The position numbers and the translations under genes are program-made. Shown here piece after piece: positions 2,007 through 43,028 of a stretch of 64,000 nt of DNA (position 1 is the stretch's first letter; every line of letters begins with the position of its first letter). The DNA is from a virus. The notes under the pieces were generated by a model, which worked only from the letters and a program-made list of their open reading frames with translations, made no database searches and was not told the DNA's origin. The DNA lies in IMG/VR virus record IMGVR_UViG_3300047443_000115, positions 27,589-91,588 of that record. One strand, given 5' to 3'.

Positions 2007-3626
2007 TCACCGCATGACGATCATCTTGGACTTCTTCTTGGGACGGGCCAGGCCGGCGGCCGTCGCATCCCCAGCGGCCTCATGGGCGAGGATGCTCGGG
2101 ATCGCAGCGTCGATCTTCTGAGACGGGCTCGCCTTGCCGAGCACATACCGGCCGCCGACACGGGCCGCCTTACGGGCGTTCCGGACGTGCGCGGCCGTGA
2201 TCACACAGCCGTCATGCCGGAACACCGACTCCGTCTTCGTGACGTCCGTTAGCAGTCGCTCCGCCGCCGCATGCATCTGCACCGTGCGGTACGTGTACCA
2301 GCGCACGACGCGCTTTTCGCCGTGTCGGTCCGCCCATCCGTCGACCTCCGACTCCCAGTACGGCGGATCGCAGTACATGCGCAGCACGTCGAAACGCGCG
2401 AACACCTCGTCGACCGCCGCGGCCACTTCAAGGCGAGGCACCTGGCCGCCGTAGTCCGCCGGATTCCAGATTGTCGGCAACTCATCCGGGCCGAATGTCG
2501 GCGTGAACTGGTAGCCGTCCAGCGTCTCCAGGCGGAGCGCTGTCCAGTCATCAACGTCCGAGCCGTCGAAGCCGGCCACGACCGTCGTGCCGTCCGGGAC
2601 CTCGCGGAACTCCGCGAGGGTGTCCCAGGCGTCGCCGTTCATCCAAGACCCGGCGCCGTACACGATGCGGTTCCCGAAGAATCGCTCCGCCTGCTCCGGA
2701 TCCTTCTCCAGTAGCTCGGCAGCCTCCGCCTCGATCGCATCCAGGTCGACGTGCGTCGAGCCCATGTAGACATGCCGGTGGATCTTCCGCCGGTCCGTCT
2801 TGTTCGTGTACTTCAGCGACGCCGGCGGCACCCGGTGGAACCGGAAGATGTCCTTGACCTTCGCCTCGGACGTGGCCTGCGCGACGCTGTTCTCCGACGG
2901 GTTCCACGCATTCGTGGTCTCCATCGTGCGGCCACCCATACCGGCGGCGCCGCGGCGCTGGGTCGTGGCAACCCGGTCCATCTTGTTCGCCGGAGTCCAC
3001 AGTTGGGTCTCATCCTGAAGGACGAACGTCACCGGGTTACCCAGGCGGGACTGCGCGCTGCTGGTGACGACGTCGATGCGGCCGTCATTCGGAAGGCGAA
3101 TGAACTGCTCCCCGACCCGCATCAGCTCACCCAACGGGCCGGTTCGGATCATCGCCTGCAGAGGCCGGTAGACGTTGTCGGTCTGCTCCTCCGAGAACGC
3201 CGTGATCTGCACCAGCGGCGTCGGCCACGGAATCGCCATCGGCTCTCCCGGTGAGTACTCGTACACCCACCCGCAGCCGCAACCATGATCGCGGCAGTCG
3301 TACACCTCGCCGCCAACCGCCCAGCCGTCAAAGACCGCTGGTCCAACGCCCTCATTCGCACAGACCGCCGCAGTCCACGGACCTTTCCCCGTCTTCTGAG
3401 GAGCAACACACTGGGACCGGCGGTAGAAGAACGCCGGCGCCAACTGGCCCACCGTCGCAGTTGGCTTCACGCGGTAGAAGTTCGCCGTGCACCACAACTG
3501 CCAGTCGTACATCTGGAACGGCTCACCCTTGCGGAAGCCATCCGGAATGCGGCAATGCTCCTCGATCCAGTCGCAAGCCACCCACAGCGTCGGAAAGTCG
3601 ACGACGAACTCGCTACTCTTCTCCAT
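2007..3626 (-). CDS. terL: Terminase large subunit
   Basis: 539 aa; Walker A PQKTGKG, Walker B VLQDE, nuclease GFDGS...DDWTAL, C-terminal KIDAAI. Confidence 0.93.
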   Translation of the reverse strand: MEKSSEFVVDFPTLWVACDWIEEHCRIPDGFRKGEPFQMYDWQLWCTANFYRVKPTATVGQLAPAFFYRRSQCVAPQKTGKGPWTAAVCANEGVGPAVFDGWAVGGEVYDCRDHGCGCGWVYEYSPGEPMAIPWPTPLVQITAFSEEQTDNVYRPLQAMIRTGPLGELMRVGEQFIRLPNDGRIDVVTSSAQSRLGNPVTFVLQDETQLWTPANKMDRVATTQRRGAAGMGGRTMETTNAWNPSENSVAQATSEAKVKDIFRFHRVPPASLKYTNKTDRRKIHRHVYMGSTHVDLDAIEAEAAELLEKDPEQAERFFGNRIVYGAGSWMNGDAWDTLAEFREVPDGTTVVAGFDGSDVDDWTALRLETLDGYQFTPTFGPDELPTIWNPADYGGQVPRLEVAAAVDEVFARFDVLRMYCDPPYWESEVDGWADRHGEKRVVRWYTYRTVQMHAAAERLLTDVTKTESVFRHDGCVITAAHVRNARKAARVGGRYVLGKASPSQKIDAAIPSILAHEAAGDATAAGLARPKKKSKMIVMR

Positions 3627-4080
3627 CGCCCGGGACGACCTTCAACCGCGACCGCGCCGACGACCGCACCGGCGCCGAACGGCCAGCAGCAGGCCGGGCC
3701 GGGGCCTCCTCCGCGGTGATGCGCCACCGGTTCGCCCGCATTCCCGGAGTCGTCAGGCCGAGAGAGTCGGCCATCTGCCGCACCAGCGTCGACAAGTTCA
3801 CCCGGGAATCCATCAGCTCAGCCTCCGAGAGCCGGCGCACGTACAGCGCCACCTCGATCTCCTGGCCGAACCGCTCCCACATCAGCGCCTGCGGCATCCG
3901 CCACAACCGCTCCCACAGCTCGTCCTCGCGGACACTCTGGTCTGTCAACGGCCATACGGGCATTGCACCCTGGCGGCCCTCCGCAGGCAGAATCGTCCAC
4001 TCGCCGGCATCCCGCTCACGCCGAAGCGCATTCGGATCAGGGGCAGGACCAGAACGTGCGCGTGCTCCACCCTTCGGCAT
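3613..4080 (-). CDS. terS: Terminase small subunit
   Basis: MPKGGARARSGPAPDP start, LGLTTPGM motif, overlaps terL start. Confidence 0.85.
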   Translation of the reverse strand: MPKGGARARSGPAPDPNALRRERDAGEWTILPAEGRQGAMPVWPLTDQSVREDELWERLWRMPQALMWERFGQEIEVALYVRRLSEAELMDSRVNLSTLVRQMADSLGLTTPGMRANRWRITAEEAPARPAAGRSAPVRSSARSRLKVVPGDGEE

Positions 4081-4134
4081 ATCGCTCTCCTCGGATCGCG
4101 CCATTGCGGCGCAAGCGACGGCCGGGCATTGCGC

Positions 4135-4920
4135 TCAGCCGATCAGGAGCAACTGCTCCCCACCGCCCCGATTCCCCTTGGCGCTGTTGCAGCCCAAGTG
4201 AGCGAGGCGGACGTTTGAAGGATCGTGCGCTCCGCCTTTCGACAAGGGCACGACGTGATCCAGGCTCGCGCTCCGCACATGGGGCCACGCGATCTTCTTG
4301 CCGACCCGGGTTTTACAGATGTGGCAGCGCCAGTGATCCCGATCAGCTATCCAAGCCAGAATCACAGGCTCGCCAGTAGAGGCGGCCACCTTCTGTGCCC
4401 GGCGGCGGTGGTACTGGTCGCGGCGGGCATCGGTCCACGGTCCAGGCTTCTGCCGGCCATCAGCGCGGGACTCACGGTTGTACAGCAGCTTGCCGTGCTT
4501 CTCCGAGCAGCAGCGCTGGCGCTCGCTCTTCGGCTGGAACTCCAGGCCGCAGCCGGGGAGGGCGCAGGCGCGAAGCGGAAGAGGGAGCGCACGGATTGCG
4601 CCGGAGTTGATCGCCCAGCACCGCGCAGAGCAAAACTCCGACTTCCGAGGCTCGCACAGATCCACCGAGCACGTTCTACAACTGACGGGGCGCTCGGGGA
4701 GTCGATGCCGATCGCGGCATTCCACCGAGCAGAACAGCGACTTCAGCGACAGCTGATCAATCTCAACCTGGCAGTACCGGCACCATCGGAAGAGCCTGAC
4801 GAAGTCATTCGGGTGCAGCCTGGCGAAGTTCTTGCAACTCCGACTGCACCAGTCGTAGCGCCCGAAGGGGAGTGGGGCTACGCACCCACGGCAAGAAGCT
4901 TTGAGGTAGGAAAGATCCAT
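4135..4920 (-). CDS. HNH endonuclease with several N-terminal CxxC...(F/W)CSxxC zinc-binding repeats
   Basis: C-terminal RDHWRCHIC...SLDHVVPLSKGGAHDPSNVRLAHLGCN; four Cys-rich repeats upstream. Confidence 0.85.
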   Translation of the reverse strand: MDLSYLKASCRGCVAPLPFGRYDWCSRSCKNFARLHPNDFVRLFRWCRYCQVEIDQLSLKSLFCSVECRDRHRLPERPVSCRTCSVDLCEPRKSEFCSARCWAINSGAIRALPLPLRACALPGCGLEFQPKSERQRCCSEKHGKLLYNRESRADGRQKPGPWTDARRDQYHRRRAQKVAASTGEPVILAWIADRDHWRCHICKTRVGKKIAWPHVRSASLDHVVPLSKGGAHDPSNVRLAHLGCNSAKGNRGGGEQLLLIG

Positions 4921-5059
4921 CAGATCTCCAGATGAGCGAGGCCCCTCGGCGTCTGGAGTCGCCAGCGGGGCCTCTGACCCAAGGGAGCTACCCTCGGGAT
5001 GGTTACGGATGGTAGCAGTCTACCGGATCCGCAAGTTGATCATGAAGTTTAGAACCCTC

Positions 5060-5135
5060 CTGACCTGGCAGCCACCTCCCCGGCGGTCCTTCGGCCGCCG
5101 GCCTGCAGGGCATAGCCCCGCCCCCTCAGCCGCCC
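5060..5135 (-). other. Candidate cos/packaging-site region
   Basis: G-rich non-coding stretch (minus strand GGACCGCCGGGGAGGTGGCTGCCAGG) between the packaging-type HNH cluster and terS; positional inference only. Confidence 0.35.
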
Positions 5136-5139
5136 GCCG

Positions 5140-5448
5140 TCACCCTTGGTGACCGTCGGCGCCGCTGTTCGTCTCGGCCGGCGGGAGCTTGAGCTCGACC
5201 ACCAGCGGCACGGTCCGCTCTTCGCTCCACGCCTGACCGTCGTGGTCGGGGTCGACGAGCCGGCTGCCATCTTCGGTGGTCTTGTACTGCTGGTATCGGA
5301 TGACGGTCTGGTCGTCGTCTCGTTCGATGCTGAGCCAGTGGTCGACGACGTGCTTGGGGTCGACGTCGTTGGCCTGGAGCCAGTCGCAGAGGGCTTCGCG
5401 GTGCTGTTCGATCTCAGCTTTGCGAATGAGCCGGAGGACGACGGTCAC
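5140..5448 (-). CDS. Hypothetical phage protein
   Basis: Protein-like C-terminal part of the track ORF; GTG just after the upstream stop. Confidence 0.6.
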   Translation of the reverse strand: MTVVLRLIRKAEIEQHREALCDWLQANDVDPKHVVDHWLSIERDDDQTVIRYQQYKTTEDGSRLVDPDHDGQAWSEERTVPLVVELKLPPAETNSGADGHQG

Positions 5449-5450
5449 GG

Positions 5451-5681
5451 TCAGCGCCAGACGTAGAGCGCGTCGCCGTCCTGGTGCTGGTGCTCGTGGC
5501 CAGCCTCGCCGGGCTCCAGTTCCTGAGCGTCGAGCTGGCAGGTGACGTGTCCGGCGAGGACGGGCAGGAAGTGCGGTGCGCCGCAGCGCGGGCCTTCGAC
5601 GACTGTCTGCTCGTCGGCCTTCGGCTCGGGCTGGGCTGCCTGCTCGTCGACTGCGGGCTCCGGTTTGGCCTTGGCGGTCAT
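5451..5681 (-). CDS. Hypothetical protein
   Basis: 76 aa, ATGA-coupled to upstream gene. Confidence 0.6.
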   Translation of the reverse strand: MTAKAKPEPAVDEQAAQPEPKADEQTVVEGPRCGAPHFLPVLAGHVTCQLDAQELEPGEAGHEHQHQDGDALYVWR

Positions 5682-5947
5682 GCTGCCTCCTCGGGTGGTG
5701 TCCAGCCGAGTGCGATGAGGGCCTTGGCTGCGTGGTCGTTGACGATGACGCGGGCGGGCTGGAGTTCGGTGGCGTCGAGTTCGTGGATGACCGGGTCGAT
5801 CGCGAGCGTGGGTAGTTCACCAGGCGCGATGGTGAGGGTGGCGCCTCTCAGTCCGTGCGATAGGTCCACGCCGTCCACGATGACCTTGTGCCGGGTGTCG
5901 TTGCTGTTGATCTGCACGGCGTGGGTGCGGTGGCCGTCCTTGCTCAT
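5678..5947 (-). CDS. Hypothetical phage protein
   Basis: MSKDGHRTHAVQI...VIVDGVDLS; coupled junctions at both ends. Confidence 0.65.
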   Translation of the reverse strand: MSKDGHRTHAVQINSNDTRHKVIVDGVDLSHGLRGATLTIAPGELPTLAIDPVIHELDATELQPARVIVNDHAAKALIALGWTPPEEAA

Positions 5948-6183
5948 GCGCGAAGGCCTCCGGGCCTGGGTCGATGGTCGGGTCTTCCTCGGCATGAGGC
6001 GTTGTGGCGGCCGAGGAATCGGCAGGCGATGCGGCCGGTGTACGAGTAGGCGGCGTCGCGGGGTTCGGCGAGGATGTAGCGAACGGTGTAGGCGAAGGCC
6101 GATCGGCATTCGCTGCGACTCCGGTAGCGCGGTCGAAGGCGCCGCGTCTTTGCCGCCGCTCGTCGGGGCCGCGTCACGCTCAT
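5944..6183 (-). CDS. Hypothetical basic protein
   Basis: Fills the gap with ATGA overlaps at both ends. Confidence 0.5.
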   Translation of the reverse strand: MSVTRPRRAAAKTRRLRPRYRSRSECRSAFAYTVRYILAEPRDAAYSYTGRIACRFLGRHNASCRGRPDHRPRPGGLRA

Positions 6184-14434: not shown

Positions 14435-16438
14435 TTAGGCGACGGCTTCTGCGGGGGTCTTGGCGGTAGCCCAGCTACCGCGCTTGATGTTCTGGACGAG
14501 GCCTTCTTCGGCAAGGCGAGCGAGCGTGGTGGACGCGGTGGACAGGGGCGCGTCGACGGCGAGAGCGATGGCACCGGTGTAGGCGTATTCGACGGTGTCG
14601 AGGTGAGCGAGGATCGCCGCCTTGTATGTGGTGCGTGCGGCCTTGGCGGCGGCGGGGGTCTGCGCCGGCATCTTCTGGGGGCTGAAGGTCCTGGCGACGA
14701 CCTGCTGCGGGGTTCGGGCGCCGTCCTTGAGGATCGCCGCCCACTTGGCGTAAGACAGTTCAGCGACCGCGCGGTCTTCGGGGCCGAGGTGCCAGGTCTC
14801 GCCCTTGGTGGCCCACCCGAACACGTCATCGATCAGCGAGGTTCGCATCACTGACGGGCGGGCCTGAGGACCGAGCGCGTAGCCGAGACCAGAGGTCGTG
14901 GTCTTGTCCGGCCACAGCCGCGGCAACTTGTTCGGCGAAACGTCGAACGACGACTGGAACGCAACCTGCCCGGACAGACCCGAGCTGGTACGCAGCACGA
15001 TGACATTGCCCGACGCGACCGAGTCCCGCAGCGGACTGGAGTTGCCGAGCTGGGACAGCAGTGGCATCTGCGTGACCAGGCGCAATTTGCAGCCGCACTT
15101 GCGGCCCATGAGTGCAATGTCCTCGGCGGCTTCGACGGCTAGCGGGTGGCAGGAGAACACGTCGTGGGCTTCGTCGATGGTCAGGGAGTACAGCGGGTCC
15201 CTGCCGTCAGCGACACGGCCGGGCTCGAAGGACCCCTTGCCCTTGCGGGTACGCCCCAGGTGATCGGTCCAGATCATTGAGGCGTACCGCTCGTTGCGGC
15301 CCAGCATCACGTCGCGCATCACCAGCAGTTCGATGACGCCCTCGGTGGCCGAGTCGGCGAAGTGGTCGACGTTGTCCTGCCAGTCGGGCAGGGACTGGCC
15401 GCGCTGCGGGTCGACGACGCGCGACACGATGAGGCCGTCGGCGTGCCGTTCGGTGGCCAGTAGTTCGTCAAGGAGCCGGGACTTGCCGGAGTCGGAGCTT
15501 CCGGAGATGAGGCTATGAACGGCGCCGGAGCCTGGCTTGTAGTGCTGGTACTCGACCGGGATGGCGTCGGCGTAGACGCCGATCATCGAGATCCCCGTCT
15601 CGGGGTTGAATGCGGACGGGCCGGGCCAGTAGTTGAGCTGCTGCAGCGGATTCCGGGGGTACACCGACAGGTGGGCGCGGCGTTCGGAGCCGGTCTCGGT
15701 GCGCTCGATCACAACCGATGAGAGCGGCACGTCGTAGGCGCCCGCGATCTTCACGGCGGCAGAAATCGCGTCGTCGACCGTGAGTAGGCCCGGGGGGAGG
15801 TCGATCAGTGCCTTCCATGCCCCAGGGACGCCCTCGATGCCCTCAGGTGCGATGAGCGCGGAGTCGGGAAGCCGGCGGCCCGGAGCGGCGATGCTCTCGC
15901 GCCAGATCCGCACCCACTCGTCTTCGGTTTCCGCCTCCGTCTCGGCGATGGGGCGGATGCGGTGGTGCCACCACCACGGGCCGCCGAGGACGGCGAGGAA
16001 CCACAGGAAAGTGAAGCCGGGAACGGGCGGCGCCCACGGGCCCACCAGCGTCATCGTCATCAGCAGCGCTAGAGCGGCACCGGTGTTGACGAGGGCGTAG
16101 AACAGCTCGCGGCGCGACAGGCCACGGCCGTTGCGGGTGCGGCGGCGAATCCACCAGGCCAGCGCGATGGCCGCGGCCACGTCGGCGGTCGCGGCGCTGC
16201 GTACACCGCCAGGCGCCAGGTGCATGGCACCCCCGGCGATGTCGACGAGAGCCGCGGCGTAGGCGGGGGCGAGACGCCGACGGTGCTTGATGCCAAACCG
16301 GGCAGCGCGGTGCAGGCCCTGAACGGTCCGCACGGTGCGCTCCAGCCGGATGCGGCGCGCCCTGAAGGGCACGACGGACACCGGGAGCGTCGGAACCTTA
16401 CGGACTCCGGTGAGCAGCTGGGGTGTGGTGTGGTCCAT
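14435..16438 (-). CDS. traB: FtsK/SpoIIIE-like conjugative DNA translocase (TraB type)
   Basis: N-terminal TM segments, Walker A ISGSSDSGKS, Walker B LTIDEAH, GRKCG..LRLVTQ, C-terminal winged HTH. Confidence 0.85.
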   Translation of the reverse strand: MDHTTPQLLTGVRKVPTLPVSVVPFRARRIRLERTVRTVQGLHRAARFGIKHRRRLAPAYAAALVDIAGGAMHLAPGGVRSAATADVAAAIALAWWIRRRTRNGRGLSRRELFYALVNTGAALALLMTMTLVGPWAPPVPGFTFLWFLAVLGGPWWWHHRIRPIAETEAETEDEWVRIWRESIAAPGRRLPDSALIAPEGIEGVPGAWKALIDLPPGLLTVDDAISAAVKIAGAYDVPLSSVVIERTETGSERRAHLSVYPRNPLQQLNYWPGPSAFNPETGISMIGVYADAIPVEYQHYKPGSGAVHSLISGSSDSGKSRLLDELLATERHADGLIVSRVVDPQRGQSLPDWQDNVDHFADSATEGVIELLVMRDVMLGRNERYASMIWTDHLGRTRKGKGSFEPGRVADGRDPLYSLTIDEAHDVFSCHPLAVEAAEDIALMGRKCGCKLRLVTQMPLLSQLGNSSPLRDSVASGNVIVLRTSSGLSGQVAFQSSFDVSPNKLPRLWPDKTTTSGLGYALGPQARPSVMRTSLIDDVFGWATKGETWHLGPEDRAVAELSYAKWAAILKDGARTPQQVVARTFSPQKMPAQTPAAAKAARTTYKAAILAHLDTVEYAYTGAIALAVDAPLSTASTTLARLAEEGLVQNIKRGSWATAKTPAEAVA

Positions 16439-34751: not shown

Positions 34752-36058
34752 TCACCGCCCGCCTCCCTGGTGGCAGGCGCAGATGCAACTCACCATGTCC
34801 TGCTTGCGAGTCCGGCGGCACGACGCGTGCATGCGCTGCGCCCACCCGTCCAGTTCACCCGCGGGGTCGCCGTCGCGGCTGATGGCGCGGTAGATCGCGT
34901 GGGCCGTCTCGCACCCGGTGGACAGGTAGACGTCGATCCAGGGTGTGATCGCGGCCAGCACGTGATCCGGCAGCTTGTCGCGGCCGGATCCGGGCGGCGG
35001 GGGCACATACCGGGACTGGATGGCGGCGAGTGCGATGTCGGCGATGGCGCCCACTTCGCCGTCGATGTGTGTGCGTCCGCCGGCCATGCCGGACCAGACA
35101 ATCGGGTGGGCTTCGTAGCAGCCGGCATCGGTCAGGCCACAGATGCCGTCGCAGCGGGTCGCGGCTGCTGTGAGGGCTTCGGCGATGGCGGTTCGCAGGT
35201 CGTCGGTCATCGGCCGGCCTCCTCAGGCTGGTCGGTCCACGTGTGCCACACGTCCGTGCCGGGGATCCGACCGCGGTGGGCGCCGTTGGGGCGGTGCTGG
35301 GTGCAGCGGATGAGGGTGTCGGCCAGGTGGTGGGTGGCGGGGCAGGCGGAGGGCGCTTCGGCCGGCGGGGTGGTGTCGGCCGGGCCGTCGAGGGCGCGCA
35401 CGGTGGCGCAGGGGTGGGCGGTGAGCAGCCCGAGGTAGTGGTGTCCGTTCCAGCCGGAGCAGGTGCGGCAGATGACCAGGCCGTTGTGGGTGGTGGGTTG
35501 GTGGAGGGCGCGGACGGCGGTGAGCTTGGCCTCGGCGGTCTCGGCGCGGCGAATAGCAGCAACGCGGTCGGTCTCGTTGTCGGCAAGTTCGTCATGCCAC
35601 CGGTCGCGGTCTGCTTCGGCGTCCAGGGCGCGGGCGGTGACGGTTCGGCACCAGTCTCCGAGGCGCTCCACTTCGGCGGCGAGTTGCTGCATGCGGCGGT
35701 CGCGGACGGCCATCACCGCGTCGGCGTTGTCGAGGTAGGAGCCTTGGGTCTCCGTGCAGAGGGTGTTCCAGGGGTGGCCGTCGTCAGCGGCGATGGCCGC
35801 CGCGTACTGGTCGCGTAGTCCGCTGTCCGGCTCCTTGTTGCTGGCCGCCGGGTTGTCCGGGGTTGTCCGGGCGGCACCGGTGAGCATGGCGGCCAGCACC
35901 GGGGCGTCCTCGCGGAACACCCAGACCGACCCGGTTTCGATGCCGTCCACGTCGAGCCAGGGGATGCGGATCGTGCGCCCGCCGTCGGCGCTGTCGATGG
36001 TTTGGGCCCACGGGTACGAGTACTCGTCGATGGCGCGGGGCTCGGGCTGGTCGGTCAC
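34752..36058 (-). CDS. Two hypothetical genes (34752-35210; 35207-36058 coiled-coil/Zn-motif mosaic)
   Basis: Coupled ORFs. Confidence 0.6.
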
Positions 36059-36432
36059 TGGCCGTTCCTGTCGTGGATGCCGAGGGCGAGGCGTGGCCCG
36101 TCGAAGCGGTCGTTGGCGAGGGTCGCGCACTGGATCTGGAAGTCGACCGGGAGCCCGGTGCGCTGCCGGGCGAGTTCGGAGATGGCGGCGCAGAGCAGGC
36201 CCCAGCGGCCGTCATGCCGGGACGGGTAGGTGTGGTCCGGGAACAGGGCGTCGAACTCGGGGTCGGGCAGGATGAGGCGCACGTCCACGTCCCGCCACTG
36301 CTTGCCGACTGCGGCTGAGCCGACGAGGTACGGGAGGTGTCCGAACGCGTCGTTGATCTCGCGGCCGAACGCTTCGAGGTGGAGGGCGGCGGGCATGCCG
36401 ACGCCGAACATGGGGGTGGGCTGGTCGGTCAC
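36055..36432 (-). CDS. Minimal Pol-beta-type nucleotidyltransferase
   Basis: YLVGSA...RDVDVR (GS...DxD) motif. Confidence 0.7.
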   Translation of the reverse strand: MTDQPTPMFGVGMPAALHLEAFGREINDAFGHLPYLVGSAAVGKQWRDVDVRLILPDPEFDALFPDHTYPSRHDGRWGLLCAAISELARQRTGLPVDFQIQCATLANDRFDGPRLALGIHDRNGQ

Positions 36433-36952
36433 TTGCCCCTCCGAACTTGGCGGACGCAGCCGCACCGTGGCGGGCAAGCCCACCGCACATGCCGGTTGCG
36501 GTGCTTGCCCCACCGGTGCCGCCCCCGACCGCAGGCGATCTCGTGCAGCAGCCCGTCCGGGGTGCACACCTCGCCGCGTGACCAGCAGGACGTGGAGTTG
36601 CGGGGGTCGGAGACGGAGGGGTGTGCGCGGTCGATGTGTTCGTCGAACTGGCTGCTGGGGATGTGCGGTCGGTCGGGGCACCAGATGCAGATGTCGGCGG
36701 GCTCGGGCTGGTCGGTCACTGGGTCGACTCCTCGGAGGTGGTGCCGCGCGGAGACCCGTAGCGGCCGGTGAGCTGAACGGCGATGTCGGCCTCTGTCCGG
36801 CCGCCGATGATGACGATCCGCTGCGCCGGAAGTCCCAGGTCGGCGAGGTTGAGCACGATCGGCTCGTCGGCCATGAGGCGGGTCATGTTCTCGCCGGACA
36901 GGCCAAGGATGACGATGGGCCCGGTGGCGTCACGGGCTACGGCTTTGATCAC
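36429..36952 (-). CDS. Two hypothetical genes (36429-36719 Cys/His-rich; 36716-36952)
   Basis: Coupled ORFs. Confidence 0.5.
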
Positions 36953-38152: not shown

Positions 38153-38264
38153 GGTCTTGGCCTTCCGGGTGGTGTCGGGTGTGTCGAGGAGCCGGGCACA
38201 GGCCCGGGGCTACGGGCGTTCCCCCCGCCGCCAGCCGGCGATGGCGCAGGCGGCGGCGAGGACG

Positions 38265-38450
38265 GACAGGGCGAGCTGGGGGAAGTTGACGTCCTCCCCG
38301 ACTAAATGCCGGGGATCCCCGCCTGCTCCCACCGCATGGGGGAGGGCTTCGGGTGGGTTGCTGCTTCGTCGCGCGGTGCCGGCACGAGTACCGGTCTTAC
38401 CTGCGCTCCACGGCCGTTTACGGTCTCCGCCCGTCCGGCGGCGACCTTTC
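38265..38450 (-). ncRNA. Predicted omega/reRNA (scaffold overlapping tnpB 3' end plus flanking guide); 5' end approximate
   Basis: Established TnpB architecture; right end ...GGACGTCAAC followed by TTCCCCCAGCTCGCCCTGTC. Confidence 0.6.
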
Positions 38451-39555
38451 GTCCTTCGGTTCGGATGTTGCGTGCCGCGTTGATGTCGCGGTCGTGCGTC
38501 ATGTCGCAGCCTTGGCACGTCCATGTGCGGACGTTGAGGGGCTTTGGGCCGTCCTTGAACCCGCACGCTGAGCAGAGCTGCGACGACGGGAAGAATCGGT
38601 CCACGCGGGCAAAGGTGCGCCCGTAGCGTGTGGCTTTGTACTCCAACATGGTCACGAACGCAGACCATCCGGCGTCGTTGACGGACCTGGAGAGGCGCGT
38701 GCGGGCAAGGCCGTTCACCGCGAGGTCTTCCACGTACACCGCTTGGTTCTCGCGGATGATCGTGGTCGACAGCTTGTGGTGAAAGTCCCGGCGCGCGTCC
38801 TTCACCTGGGCGTGAACCTTGGCGACCTTGATGACGGCCCTCTTGCGATTCGCGGAGCCCTTCGTCTTCCGGCTGAGAGCCCGCTGCGCCTTCTTCAGCT
38901 TGCGTTCGGCGCGGCGGAGGAACTTCGGTGATGCCACCTTGCGGCCGTCCGACAGCACCGCGAAGTGGGTGAGGCCAAGGTCGATGCCCACCTCGGGCGT
39001 GGTCTCCGGCAGCACCTCGGAGCCGTCTGTCATCACGACGAAGGAGGCGAAGTACCGGCCGGCCGCATCCTTGACCACAGTCACTGATGACGGAGTCGAG
39101 GGCAGGGCGCGGGACCACTTCACCCGCAGCTCGCCGACCTTGGCCACGTACAGGTGACCATTGGGGCGGATTGAGAAGCCGTTGCGGGTGAGGCGGATTG
39201 CCTGCCGGTTGTCCCGCCTGGACCGGAACCGGGGCGGGGCCACTTTCGGGCCCTTGCGCTTGCCCGTGGCCGAGGTGAAGAAATTTCGGTAGGCGGTGTG
39301 CAGGTCGGCGAGCGCCTGAACCAGAACGACCGAGGACACCTCTGCCAACCATGCCCGCTCGGGGGTCTGTTTCGCGGCGGTGATGACCTGCTTCTGGAGG
39401 TCGGTGTCCTTGAGGTACGGCAGCCCCGCCGCACGGGCGTCCTGTCGGGCCCTCAGGGCGTCGTTGAAGACCGCGCGGGCGCAGCCGAAGGCGCGGGCGA
39501 GTTGCTGTTCCTGGCTGGGGGTGGGGTAGAGCCGGAAGTTGTACCTGAGCTGCAC
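38302..39555 (-). CDS. tnpB: RNA-guided nuclease TnpB, RuvC triad intact
   Basis: YNFRLYPT N terminus; GIDLG, YVEDL, CSAC/CQGC, DRDINAARNI. Confidence 0.95.
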   Translation of the reverse strand: MQLRYNFRLYPTPSQEQQLARAFGCARAVFNDALRARQDARAAGLPYLKDTDLQKQVITAAKQTPERAWLAEVSSVVLVQALADLHTAYRNFFTSATGKRKGPKVAPPRFRSRRDNRQAIRLTRNGFSIRPNGHLYVAKVGELRVKWSRALPSTPSSVTVVKDAAGRYFASFVVMTDGSEVLPETTPEVGIDLGLTHFAVLSDGRKVASPKFLRRAERKLKKAQRALSRKTKGSANRKRAVIKVAKVHAQVKDARRDFHHKLSTTIIRENQAVYVEDLAVNGLARTRLSRSVNDAGWSAFVTMLEYKATRYGRTFARVDRFFPSSQLCSACGFKDGPKPLNVRTWTCQGCDMTHDRDINAARNIRTEGRKVAAGRAETVNGRGAQVRPVLVPAPRDEAATHPKPSPMRWEQAGIPGI

Positions 39556-39634
39556 CCCGCACCCCCTGATCAAGTAGTTGAACTACTCCAAGCATAGCAG
39601 TAGCCGACCTATCGCATGCCGGTATCGTGAACCC

Positions 39635-39841
39635 ATGGAGATCCCCGGCTACCTGACGACCGAGCAGGCCGCGAAGCGCCTCGGCATCAACCCGCAGAGC
39701 GTCTACAACCTCGCCAACCGGGCCTCCGACTTCCCCAAGCCCGTCAAGGTCGGCCGCGCATCCCTCTGGCCCGAGGCCGGGATCGATGCCTGGCGAGCCG
39801 CACACCCTGCGCGACGGCGGCGGCAGCCCCCGACTGCCTGA
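39635..39841 (+). CDS. AlpA/excisionase-like HTH protein
   Basis: YLTTEQAAKRLGINPQSVYNL...FPKPVKVGRASLW; leaderless -10 TATCGT. Confidence 0.8.
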   Translation: MEIPGYLTTEQAAKRLGINPQSVYNLANRASDFPKPVKVGRASLWPEAGIDAWRAAHPARRRRQPPTA

Positions 39842-39858
39842 CGGTTGAAGGTCGGCAT

Positions 39859-40377
39859 TCAGTTCGGGCATGACGGGGCCTCACGGTCGATCGGGTGGCT
39901 TGCGGCTGTCGCTGGCGCCCTGGGGCTCGAAGCTGGCCCAGGACCGTCGGAGGCTGCGAGGCCGGGAGAACCCCCGTGGAGCGCGTTCTCAGCCTCGCTA
40001 GGGGTGGAGTCGCCGGAGCGCCCGGCGCGCGGCGCCCTCCCGTCCCCGTTGAAGCCCGCCCCGTCGTCACCAGAGCGCCCCGCAGCATCCCGGCGGGGCT
40101 CGGGAGCCTCCGCGCAGCCTGAGAGCCCCTGAGGGCCGCCCCTGGGATTCCGGCGGGCAGCCTTCGCGGCAGCACGGCGGGCCGCTCGGTTCGCCCGTGG
40201 CGGCTGCGGCAGGTTCATCCCGGGCGTCGCCGTCTCCGACGCGAAGCCCTCCGCCCACCCGAACGGCGATCCGTCGTCATCCGGGACCACCACCTCGCCC
40301 AGCGACCTGAGCTCGGTCTCCCACGTGGCGCCCGGTTTCCCCGCACGCTCACCGCGAGGCGACGACGGGCCGGTCAC
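39859..40377 (-). CDS. Hypothetical low-complexity protein
   Basis: Coupled at both ends. Confidence 0.45.
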   Translation of the reverse strand: MTGPSSPRGERAGKPGATWETELRSLGEVVVPDDDGSPFGWAEGFASETATPGMNLPQPPRANRAARRAAAKAARRNPRGGPQGLSGCAEAPEPRRDAAGRSGDDGAGFNGDGRAPRAGRSGDSTPSEAENALHGGSPGLAASDGPGPASSPRAPATAASHPIDREAPSCPN

Positions 40378-40887: not shown

Positions 40888-42693
40888 TCAGGCGGCGGCA
40901 CTGAAGGCGGGGGCTGCGGCGGCGTATCGGTCCAGCTCCTCGCCGGCCACGGCTTCGACGAGGGCGCAGACGATGACCTCGGCGGCGTTCGGGGTAACGG
41001 CGTTGCCATATTGTCTGACTTTTTCCCGCTTTGACCCGATCACGATGTACTGGTCGGCGAAGCTCATCGCCCGGCCGATCTCGTGGGGTTCGAGCATCCG
41101 GAACAGCACGTCCTCGATGTCGACCTCGCCCTTGACCAGGGCGTAGTGATCGCGCGTCATCATCGTGCCGACCGGCTCAGCGACCGTCCTGGCCACACCC
41201 TTGCCGTAGTACGGCACCAGCAGGTGCTCCCAGGTGACGAGCGACTGGTGGCCGGCGGTGGTCAGCGACCGGAGCGGCTCGTTGACGGGGGTGCTGAGGT
41301 ATCCGGAGTCGCCGCGCGCCGAGTTGTTGCGCATGACCATGGCGGCCGTGTCCGGCATGACGAGCCCGTGGTGGTTCCCGGACGCGGTGACCGTCGCGAG
41401 GGCGTCACCCACGGACCGGGCCACGGAACCGCCGCCGCGCAGCTCCGCGACGAACGGCAGCCAGGCGAGCCCGGTCTCGTTGCGGGCAGTCTGGGTACGC
41501 AGCGGCAGGTTGGCGCTCGACGGCTCCTTGCCGTCGCGGCCCTCGACGGGGATCAGCAGCGGCGGGATCGCTATGCCGTCGTTCTCCCGCGTCGTCCTCG
41601 TCGACATCGGCTCCGACACCGGGCTCGGGGCGTCGCGCCAGGTTCCGCCGGCCGGGACCATGAACGGCTCGTAGGCCATGGCCTTCGTCGCCGTCGTGGT
41701 CTGGGTGGTGAGCGGCGCGTCGATCGGCCAGGTGCGGACGCCCGGGCGCCGCTCGAACGTGTTGCCCGCGGCCTCCAGCGAGATTGGCCGGGCGAACTTC
41801 TTCAGCCCGGCCTGGATGCGGGCGAGCGTCTTGTCGGCGAGGGGCTTGGCCCGGTCGCCGATCCGCTGGCCCGGCAGGCTCCAGTCGATCGCCACGGCGG
41901 CCGGGAGCGTCTCGGGCTCGACGACCTGGTTGCGGCACTTCACCTGCGGGCAGCGGTACACGTACTGCTGCCGGTAGCGGCCCATGTCGCGGGCCGGGTC
42001 CTTGAACGCCTGGACCGCCTGGACCCACTCCTCGCAGCCCGTGCACCAGGCGCGCGGCCGGAGCCACTTGTTCCAGTCCGGGGTCCGGCCCAGCGACTCG
42101 TGCCAGTACGCCACGTAAAGGCGATCGCGGCTCTGAGGCGCACGGTGGACCGCACGCGGGTCGGCGTGCATCGAGTTCAGGGCGATCACGCGGGTCAGAT
42201 AGCCGAGCTTCTTGATCTCCCCGATCCAACGGTCCCACTGATCCCAGGCCCGCACGTCCACGACGTTCTCGACGACGCCGGCCTTCACCAGGCCGCCGCG
42301 CTCCTGAACGCCCCGCAGGTACAGCGGCACTTCCTCCATCAGCGCCCGGGACCGCTCGACCTCCTCCGACGGGGCCGTCTCGCCGAACAGGTCGTCCTGC
42401 AGCGAGTTGGCGAAGTCCCGCTTCTTGCCTCGGGCGTTCGACCACTGCGGGCACTCGGGGCTGGCCCAGAAGATGTCCGTGACGGGCCACTTCTCGACCG
42501 GGGCCTCACGGATGTCGCCGCGGTAGTGGTCGACCTCGGGGAAGTTCGCGGCGTGCGACTCGATCGCGCGGGCCCAGTGGTTCGCGGCGCGCTCTACCCG
42601 GACGCCGGGGATGGAGTGCATGCCCTGCGAGCTGCCTCCCGCGCCACAGAACCAGTCCATAACGGTCAGGGCGTCGTTGTCGTATCGGGTCAT
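40888..42693 (-). CDS. C5-cytosine DNA methyltransferase
   Basis: DWFCGAGG, WASPEC, ENV, QSRDR, QYGNAV. Confidence 0.92.
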   Translation of the reverse strand: MTRYDNDALTVMDWFCGAGGSSQGMHSIPGVRVERAANHWARAIESHAANFPEVDHYRGDIREAPVEKWPVTDIFWASPECPQWSNARGKKRDFANSLQDDLFGETAPSEEVERSRALMEEVPLYLRGVQERGGLVKAGVVENVVDVRAWDQWDRWIGEIKKLGYLTRVIALNSMHADPRAVHRAPQSRDRLYVAYWHESLGRTPDWNKWLRPRAWCTGCEEWVQAVQAFKDPARDMGRYRQQYVYRCPQVKCRNQVVEPETLPAAVAIDWSLPGQRIGDRAKPLADKTLARIQAGLKKFARPISLEAAGNTFERRPGVRTWPIDAPLTTQTTTATKAMAYEPFMVPAGGTWRDAPSPVSEPMSTRTTRENDGIAIPPLLIPVEGRDGKEPSSANLPLRTQTARNETGLAWLPFVAELRGGGSVARSVGDALATVTASGNHHGLVMPDTAAMVMRNNSARGDSGYLSTPVNEPLRSLTTAGHQSLVTWEHLLVPYYGKGVARTVAEPVGTMMTRDHYALVKGEVDIEDVLFRMLEPHEIGRAMSFADQYIVIGSKREKVRQYGNAVTPNAAEVIVCALVEAVAGEELDRYAAAAPAFSAAA

Positions 42694-43028
42694 CAGCTGG
42701 CCTTCCTGGCGTCGCGTGCGGGCTGGCAAACGGGCTGGTCGGGGGCCCGTCGCACGGTGAGGTGCGGGGGGTGGTTGCGGTACACGGCGGCCGCGAGCAG
42801 TTCCCGGTTGGCGGTCTTCTGCTCGGCGCTGAGCGGCTCCCGGTAGCGGTTCCGTATCGGGACCGGCGCCTCTTCGGCGGTCAGCCGGTCGAGGACGCGA
42901 ACCGACGGCATGCCCAGGGCCTGCCGGGTGCGGTGGACGGTGGTGCGGTCGCAGCCCAGCTCGTGGGCGATGCGGGTGTCGGTGTGGCCCGCGCGGATGC
43001 CGTCAGCGATGTCGTCACGGATCTTCAC
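42693..43028 (-). CDS. HTH DNA-binding protein
   Basis: TDTRIAHELGCDRTTVHRTR. Confidence 0.65.
   Translation of the reverse strand: MKIRDDIADGIRAGHTDTRIAHELGCDRTTVHRTRQALGMPSVRVLDRLTAEEAPVPIRNRYREPLSAEQKTANRELLAAAVYRNHPPHLTVRRAPDQPVCQPARDARKAS

Follow-up and report, generated by a model that had tools for sequence, protein, structure and literature searches.

TnpB proteins are known as nucleases of transposon maintenance ('restorative homing'). In the ISDra2 element the omega-RNA (reRNA) lies in the 3' end of tnpB and the right end (RE) of the element, the guide comes from the flank, and the target-adjacent motif (TAM) is reportedly TTGAT. TnpB has also been discussed as a homing nuclease, with 'transposon non-restorative homing' into co-infecting phages listed as a category in PMC13565253, which also reviews free-standing phage homing endonucleases (T4 Seg/Mob) and 'intronless' homing. 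Arc, a ribbon-helix-helix (RHH) protein, represses the bidirectional promoter of IS605-family elements and has relatives beside homing endonuclease genes (Moon et al., 10.64898/2026.09.24.754181). It is the closest published parallel to the locus described here, a cassette in which tnpB is divergent from a gene for a small helix-turn-helix (HTH) protein. The cassette lies in a 64,000-nt stretch (the window, whose positions are used throughout) of virus record IMGVR_UViG_3300047443_000115. Judged from sequence comparison, it is fairly probable that this cassette is a stranded, repressor-gated IS605-type TnpB acting as an RNA-guided homing or exclusion nuclease.

The cassette TnpB matched Pfam OrfB_IS605, Cas12f1-like_TNB and HTH_OrfB (HTH_OrfB_IS605). 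NCBIfam model NF040570 scored above its cut-off, and NF038281 gave 364 bits, under its 425 'exception' cut-off. The protein aligned with ISDra2 TnpB of Deinococcus radiodurans (PDB 8bf8/8exa/8h1j) at 267 bits (8bf8/8exa) over residues 5-388, nearly its full length. In line with an earlier sequence-only reading of the window, the RuvC D/E/D residues were all kept in this alignment (GIDLG, VEDL, DRDINAA), and the zinc finger CxxC...CxxC was intact (CSAC...CQGC). A nuclease-dead repressor of the TldR kind was ruled out by the intact RuvC residues. The cassette thus apparently encodes an intact IS200/IS605 RNA-guided nuclease of ISDra2 type. Unlike ISDra2, it has neither tnpA nor a left end (LE), carries a predicted winged-helix repressor and dyads in the place of tnpA, and interrupts a small phage open reading frame (ORF) in the genome of a phage or phage-plasmid.

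TnpB proteins 64-77% identical to that of the window were encoded at 80 actinobacterial loci. A divergent Y1 tnpA was present at about 50 of the 80, indicating a classical IS605-type lineage, and about 28 were without tnpA. In having no transposase, the phage cassette resembles tnpB-only (IS1341-type) and non-autonomous IS200/IS605 elements. The HTH gene stood in the place of tnpA at only two of the 80 loci, L057 (S. triticiradicis) and L109. L057 is the closest relative (TnpB 77% and HTH 85% identical), and the L109 HTH showed 45% identity only. In a quick IQ-TREE tree of TnpB, L109 fell within a tnpA-bearing clade and L057 grouped with tnpB-only elements. This split placement indicates that tnpA was replaced by the HTH gene at least twice independently. 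An IS607-type origin of the HTH, as the DNA-binding domain of a transposase, was rejected because the relatives hold Y1 rather than serine transposases. Against L057, the ratio of nonsynonymous to synonymous substitution rates (dN/dS) was 0.24-0.27 for tnpB and 0.17 for the HTH gene, at a synonymous divergence (dS) of about 0.65-0.69; these values describe the window-L057 pair, from which the phage branch, itself long, is not separable. The low ratios indicate that both genes were under purifying selection over most of their divergence from L057.

The HTH gene was placed divergently in the position of tnpA by the sequence-only reading, as an AlpA-like gene ending 2 bp from the left end; this was confirmed, with the stop 2 nt from the TCAAC motif. 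TIGR01764 matched its 68-aa product below threshold. An AlphaFold2 (AF2) model (predicted local distance difference test, pLDDT, 84) folded as strand-helix-helix, a two-strand wing and a C-terminal helix, that is, a small winged helix, and its best structural matches in Foldseek were the RdfS excisionase, Streptomyces BldC and mycobacteriophage Pukovnik Xis, with GIsul2 Xis also found. Between the two genes lie the exact and the weaker AGTAG-N5-CTACT dyads that had been noted earlier, here named O2 and O1 respectively (Table 1). No other exact copy of O2 occurs in the window, for which chance predicts 0.09 matches with up to one mismatch. The O2 motif was identical in L057, in L151 (a provirus) and in L160 (a plasmid), with a one-base variant in L161 (pSAM1), and O1 was perfect in all four of these loci. 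The TATCGT hexamer of the HTH gene ends 6 nt ahead of the ATG, as is usual for leaderless transcripts in Streptomyces; the pattern TAnnnT, 6 nt, ATG was conserved in five of five loci whose flanking genes differ. The HTH protein is thus predicted to repress both its own gene and tnpB via the intergenic dyads. A one-mismatch operator copy, AGTAGTTGAGCTGCT, also occurs at 15628-15642, far from the cassette, and may be due to chance or be a second HTH site.

The limits of an HTH-bearing element could be read from L057, for which a sister genome provides the exact empty site: TCCTGAC|TAGGCTGG, against TCCTGAC|LE…RE-GTCAA|TAGGCTGG in L057. At this site the sister genome reads …GGTCCTGAC|TAGGCTGGGG… and L057 reads …GTCCTGAC|CGGCTTC…[HTH, tnpB]…GACGTCAA|TAGGCTGGG…. 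The HTH gene is therefore cargo of a precise IS605-style insertion made without target duplication, and the TAM of the closest relative is therefore CTGAC. Other family copies had TTGAC or CTGAC at the TAM position, and the family motif (T/C)TGAC resembles the TAM of ISDra2.

Outside the HTH stop, L057 and L109 share a canonical left end consisting of the target motif and, about 25 nt on, an RE-like hairpin. Nothing similar to this left end of about 85 nt (TAM-adjacent sequence and hairpin) was found in the 64-kb window. Homology to L057 ended two bases past the HTH stop codon, which lies 9 nt from the phage flank with no left-end hairpin between. Having lost its left end, the element can therefore not be excised or moved by a Y1 transposase, host-supplied included, whereas the tnpB-only relatives keep both ends and are mobilisable in trans. 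The regulator is a further addition of the phage copy. The carrier genome encodes no Y1 transposase detectable with PF01797, which matched in six of 14 control genomes, confirming that the cassette is transposase-free as first noted.

The boundary of the right end was read from multi-copy genomes (e.g. nine copies in Kitasatospora hibisci) as the point where the copies stop matching. In about 60 relatives a covarying hairpin was followed by an AGGAyGTCAA terminus and a variable next base. The window fits this layout exactly, with the 9 nt GGACGTCAA (38294-38286) after the hairpin and TCAA as the final letters, and blastn homology of many relatives to the window ended at 38286. Since TCAA is invariant as the terminus, it is the element's own end, analogous to the IS608 right cleavage site, and not a TAM. 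With the element ending at 38286, flank and guide begin at 38285. The K. hibisci chromosome (L127-L136) holds at least nine copies, 99.7-100% identical, of a tnpA and tnpB IS605-type element, which indicates a recently active insertion sequence (IS); in L131 part of the left end is duplicated in tandem, and the ends of L130 and L132 are truncated.

The last 180 nt of the element look as an omega-RNA scaffold should. Across 33 aligned sequences, compensatory changes were seen at 18 of the 26 predicted pairs, and the window keeps every helix. An Rfam HgcC match (38273-38408, minus strand, E 0.015, below the gathering score) is a weak pointer only. The predicted guide, CTTCCCCCAGCTCGCC, occurs once in the 91.6-kb genome, and the C-terminal part of the interrupted small ORF begins with it. 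The sequence-only reading had also taken the RE-adjacent flank as the guide, and was correct in this and in its match to empty alleles; the guide starts one base earlier than it proposed. In the carrier the guide sequence is preceded by GTCAA. By the usual IS605 self/non-self logic, a right-end terminus in the place of the TAM spares the element's own locus. As GTCAA differs from the TAM, the carrier should thus not be cut.

Empty alleles, which had been predicted to exist in related phages, were found in contigs from three further studies of rhizosphere or root (runs X2, X3 and X4); only DNA contigs were used. The X2 and X3 contigs were identical to window 38161-38285 and then differed, and the X4 contig was identical up to 38281. 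Beyond the identical stretch the empty alleles continued …CCGTGAC, with the break exactly at the deduced right-end boundary. On the minus strand X2 and X3 read …CAGCCGTGAC|CTTCCCCCAGCTC…, so that both contain GTGAC|CTTCCCCCAG, a TGAC core with a perfect match to the guide. Their uninterrupted small ORF begins GTG ACC TTC CCC CAG… (MTFPQLALS…), with the GTG overlapping the TGA of an upstream gene different from that of the carrier, and X4 encodes the variant MTWPQ…. The simplest ancestral site in this phage, as reconstructed, is ATGCCGAC|CTTCCCCCAG (MPTFPQL…, 27 codons), which makes the insert 39850-38286, about 1565 nt. Cassette-free alleles thus carry the target (X2, X3) and the carrier allele is without it, as for a homing-type element.

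Table 1. Features of the cassette and its flanks (window positions; strand. for features without orientation)
Feature	Position	Strand	Remarks
tnpB coding sequence	38302..39555	-	GTG start 39555, TAG stop 38304-38302; ISDra2-like
Putative omega-RNA scaffold region and right end (RE)	38286..38465	-	Overlaps tnpB 3' end; terminates ...GAGGACGTCAA at 38286
Subterminal RE hairpin TCCCCGGC-ATTTA-GTCGGGGA	38295..38315	-	Layout as in relatives; stem covaries across loci
Predicted 16-nt guide/target CTTCCCCCAGCTCGCC	38270..38285	-	Phage flank directly 3' of RE
HTH gene, 68 aa, excisionase/BldC-like winged helix (HTH_17)	39635..39841	+	Pfam HTH_17 34.5 bits
Operator O2 AGTAGTTGAACTACT	39573..39587	.	tnpB-proximal; just downstream of TATGCT -10-like hexamer 39596-39591 (-)
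Operator O1, degenerate, AGTAGCCGACCTATC	39599..39613	.	HTH-proximal; directly upstream of TATCGT -10-like hexamer 39623-39628
Non-canonical left junction CTTCAAC+CG	39842..39850	-	Homology to L057 stops at CG after HTH stop
TAM position, left flank, CCGAC	39851..39855	-	Empty alleles read GTGAC there
Interrupted small phage ORF, first four codons ATG CCG ACC TTC	39858-39847	-	Sequence reading
Interrupted small phage ORF, C-terminal part (...FPQLALSVLAAACAIAGWRRGERP*)	38210..38284	-	Intact form in X2/X3 contigs

We propose the following course of events. Elements of the order LE-HTH-operators-tnpB/omega-RNA-RE occur as precise TnpA-style insertions in Streptomyces chromosomes, as seen in L057. 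One such element would have inserted 3' of (C/T)GAC within a 26-27-codon phage ORF and afterwards lost its left end of about 85 nt, no longer being excised or moved by a host TnpA. In the remaining unit the two dyad operators would straddle back-to-back promoters. A leaderless HTH transcript would run one way, and tnpB with its 3' omega-RNA would be transcribed in the opposite direction, the RNA reading through the RE (…GTCAA) into the flank and so acquiring the guide. The TnpB-omega-RNA complex, once made, would cut TGAC+CTTCCCCCAGCTCGCC in cassette-free relatives during co-infection, and the competitor might thereby be excluded or, given homology on both flanks, receive a copy of the cassette through recombination (non-restorative homing). 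By binding the operators, the HTH protein would repress both promoters and keep expression of nuclease and regulator low. Loss of the left end may also have stabilised the element, possibly because the phage would become a target of its own nuclease if a host TnpA excised the cassette.

Several observations weigh against this reading. The left flank of the carrier, CCGAC, is one base off CTGAC, and the TAM is taken from relatives. Apart from CTTC, the 7 nt at the left junction (CTTCAAC) have no counterpart in L057 or in the empty allele. CTTC equals the first 4 nt of the target and thus occurs on both sides of the insert; we assume that CTTCAAC is a stub of the deleted left end, with CTTC matching the target by chance, and hence also assume a precise internal deletion. 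A scan of the region for sigma-70 promoters and terminators found nothing, its consensus being E. coli-type and uninformative for Streptomyces promoters. The terminal branch of the window TnpB is long (0.3 in the quick tree), possibly reflecting relaxation.

The empty alleles themselves also count against the homing part of the proposal. In the sampled phages the sequence shared with the carrier amounts to only about 125 nt on the right side and about 7 nt on the left. Homology is thus essentially one-sided, and homing by recombination into those sampled genomes is unlikely. An empty allele of the same lineage was found neither among INPHARED phages (DNA and protein searches), nor in IMG/VR with degenerate patterns for the empty allele of the sequence-only reading and for the right flank, nor in JGI metagenome contigs with two patterns. 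L003, the only IMG/VR relative of the neighbouring methylase, was considered as an empty site and proved too mosaic. No recognisable homologue of the small ORF was found in L003, G403, L160, L161 or L162. In the source run (X1) no contig joined across the cassette, although contigs cannot reveal rare variants.

Some of these observations would also fit an inert relic, that is, a dead-end transposon fragment tolerated by the phage, with TnpB and omega-RNA unexpressed or inactive and the conservation due to recent arrival. In line with such a fragment, the left end and the transposase are gone, the TnpB branch is long, the cassette is single-copy in the 91.6-kb genome, and no same-lineage empty allele was found to show ongoing spread. 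However, all catalytic and zinc-finger residues are kept, as are every family helix of the omega-RNA region, the operators and the -10 elements, and the low dN/dS of tnpB spans a divergence of about 0.65 synonymous changes per site. Pieces of a nearly identical cassette (about 97% in tnpB) are also present in other samples. We thus consider an inert relic unlikely. The pieces in question are contigs of X2 and X3 with a tnpB segment about 97% identical (38285-39084), an HTH/operator segment 92% identical (39525-39775) and a diverged middle, with a joint 39084>39520; one contig runs past 38285 into flank. They suggest a sister cassette in another genomic context.

Different limits for the element were drawn in the sequence-only reading, which took it to span 39843-38285 and to have entered an ancestral ATGCCGACCTTCAAC|TTCCCCCAG 3' of TCAAC or TCAA, with TCAAC as TAM. 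These limits imply an empty site containing TTCAACTTC in a closely related phage. The direct repeat behind them is real, TCAAC being present on the minus strand at 39848-39844 and 38289-38285. This version also accounts for all bases without orphan nucleotides, homology to L057 does end at 39842/39843, and TCAA could conceivably serve at both ends of an element whose only hairpin is of RE type. Deletion of the 1559 bp between the repeats gives, as claimed, an in-frame ORF (29 aa) from the ATG right after the upstream TGA, but the AACTTC it requires is missing from the three natural empty alleles, which also have no TCAA at the site. The repeat is weak boundary evidence, with 111 copies of TCAAC in the window and five more on the minus strand inside the cassette. 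Further, about 60 relatives have TCAA as their own 3' terminus, followed by a variable base, and the TAM is CTGAC in the closest relative, TTGAC or CTGAC in other copies and GTGAC at the position in the empty alleles. The element thus ends at 38286 and not 38285, and the insert is about 1565 rather than 1559 nt; the natural empty alleles differ from the proposed one by a few bases, the outcome which the sequence-only reading had itself named as speaking against it. Insertion at TCAAC is therefore very improbable.

To place the HTH gene, the partner contexts of its homologues were collected from genome, plasmid and provirus searches. In the 55.6-kb provirus G403/L151, a 70% identical HTH gene with both operators was divergent from an HNH_3 endonuclease gene (L151:1868-2704). 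On a 102-kb plasmid of Streptomyces sp. NBC_01590 (L160), a 78% identical HTH gene with both operators was divergent from a gene with an endonuclease VII domain (L160:2644-3704), and in pSAM1 the HTH gene and operators faced a 206-aa protein. Distant homologues (40-62% identity), with dyads of their own, stood divergently beside a remote TnpB clade (32% identical) and beside a 666-aa protein bearing a TNB domain of Cas12f type. Among 401 sampled Streptomyces genomes, nine of 13 HTH homologue loci were beside a TnpB-superfamily gene; of the remaining four, three were not judgeable (contig ends or IS insertion) and one was a weak match. As the same HTH and operators occur beside HNH and endonuclease VII genes at tnpB-free loci, the HTH is not private to this tnpB, contrary to the sequence-only reading, which had itself named an HTH gene at tnpB-free loci as refuting it. 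These contexts indicate a portable module accompanying selfish nucleases, and strengthen the reading of the HTH as a repressor of a dangerous neighbour.

The HTH protein might instead be an excisionase-like recombination-directionality or architectural factor that assists in moving or copying the cassette without TnpA, or an early regulator of the phage beside which tnpB landed by chance; although its best structural matches are excisionases and recombination-directionality factors (RDFs; RdfS, Pukovnik Xis, GIsul2 Xis) and its pSAM1-like plasmid homologues stand first in a rightward operon of small genes near integrase genes, both alternatives are very doubtful, as the dyads sit exactly over both divergent -10 regions and are kept with the HTH whatever its partner (TnpB, HNH, endonuclease VII), the HTH of L057 lies within the left-end and right-end limits of a precise insertion, and the HTH is missing along with tnpB from the empty alleles.

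Returning to the HTH as repressor, a broader proposal is possible, albeit one we regard as more doubtful than probable. Streptomyces mobile elements may have repeatedly coupled the HTH gene and its dyad pair, as a portable safety switch, to selfish nucleases (TnpB, the distant TnpB clade, the 666-aa Cas12f-TNB protein, HNH, endonuclease VII). In the phage cassette the switch would gate a non-excisable TnpB weapon or homing device, and loss of the left end would have been adaptive.

At loci of the L159 type the 666-aa protein has an arrangement of its own. In L159 its gene (2838-4838, minus strand; sole Pfam match Cas12f1-like TNB) is followed by the HTH gene (about 4910-5100) and DDE genes (5144-6156). 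The same arrangement occurs in L140, L142, L143 and L148, on Streptomyces chromosomes, with HTH homologues of 52-59% identity lying between the divergent 666-aa gene and an IS5-type HTH_Tnp_4/DDE transposase. A related half-site, GAGTAGTTCAGCTATGA, was present in the control region. Possibly a DDE transposon here carries a large TnpB/Cas12-like nuclease, the 666-aa protein.

Like the phage HTH, Arc is a small DNA-binding protein encoded divergently from tnpB within the element, with an intergenic region between the two genes. By contrast, the phage protein is modelled as a MerR/excisionase-like winged helix and not an RHH protein, the two folds being unrelated. It also replaces tnpA whereas Arc accompanies it, and its repressor role is predicted by comparison, from the two dyads conserved over the -10 regions in five loci. 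The literature searched held no description of a TnpB paired with an excisionase-like HTH. The locus would thus extend the Arc finding to a structurally unrelated regulator in the same position, travelling with several unrelated nuclease genes, and suggests that such nucleases can generally be carried only under tight transcriptional control.

The cassette also resembles free-standing genes of the T4 Seg/Mob type. In both, a selfish nuclease gene lies between phage genes, the target is the cassette-free allele of related phages, and marker exclusion or copying is expected at co-infection; relatives of the HTH module also adjoin HNH and endonuclease VII genes. Unlike these endonucleases, the phage TnpB would recognise its target by RNA guide and TAM instead of by protein, and would separate self from non-self by the right end that replaces the TAM. 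For TnpB homing between co-infecting phages, a proposed category, no demonstration was found in the literature searched, and the locus offers a testable case with a defined guide, a TAM candidate, natural target alleles and a carrier allele expected to be immune. The compact HTH/operator/TnpB unit may also represent a natural repressible TnpB expression cassette from Streptomyces.

The window belongs to a 91.6-kb IMG/VR virus with 97% CheckV completeness and 69% G+C. Its cytosine C5 methyltransferase gene (40888-42729) showed 77-80% nucleotide identity to genes on many 85-94 kb Streptomyces 'plasmids', which encode ERF/Rad52, WhiB, a methylase, an integrase and other phage-type genes. The shared methylase indicates that the host is most likely Streptomyces, and the carrier is probably a temperate phage or phage-plasmid in the family of Streptomyces phage-plasmids. 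Provirus G403/L151 offers a comparable neighbourhood, in which the HNH_3/HTH module and a homologue of window gene 36055-36681 are about 2 kb apart.

A 553-aa open frame (38210-39871, minus strand), which crosses the whole cassette in a third frame, was rejected as a high-GC artefact. Translation of the membrane-like C-terminal part of the interrupted small ORF could, however, start at an in-frame GTG that lies about 45 nt upstream of the right end; its product would be fused to residues encoded by the right end.

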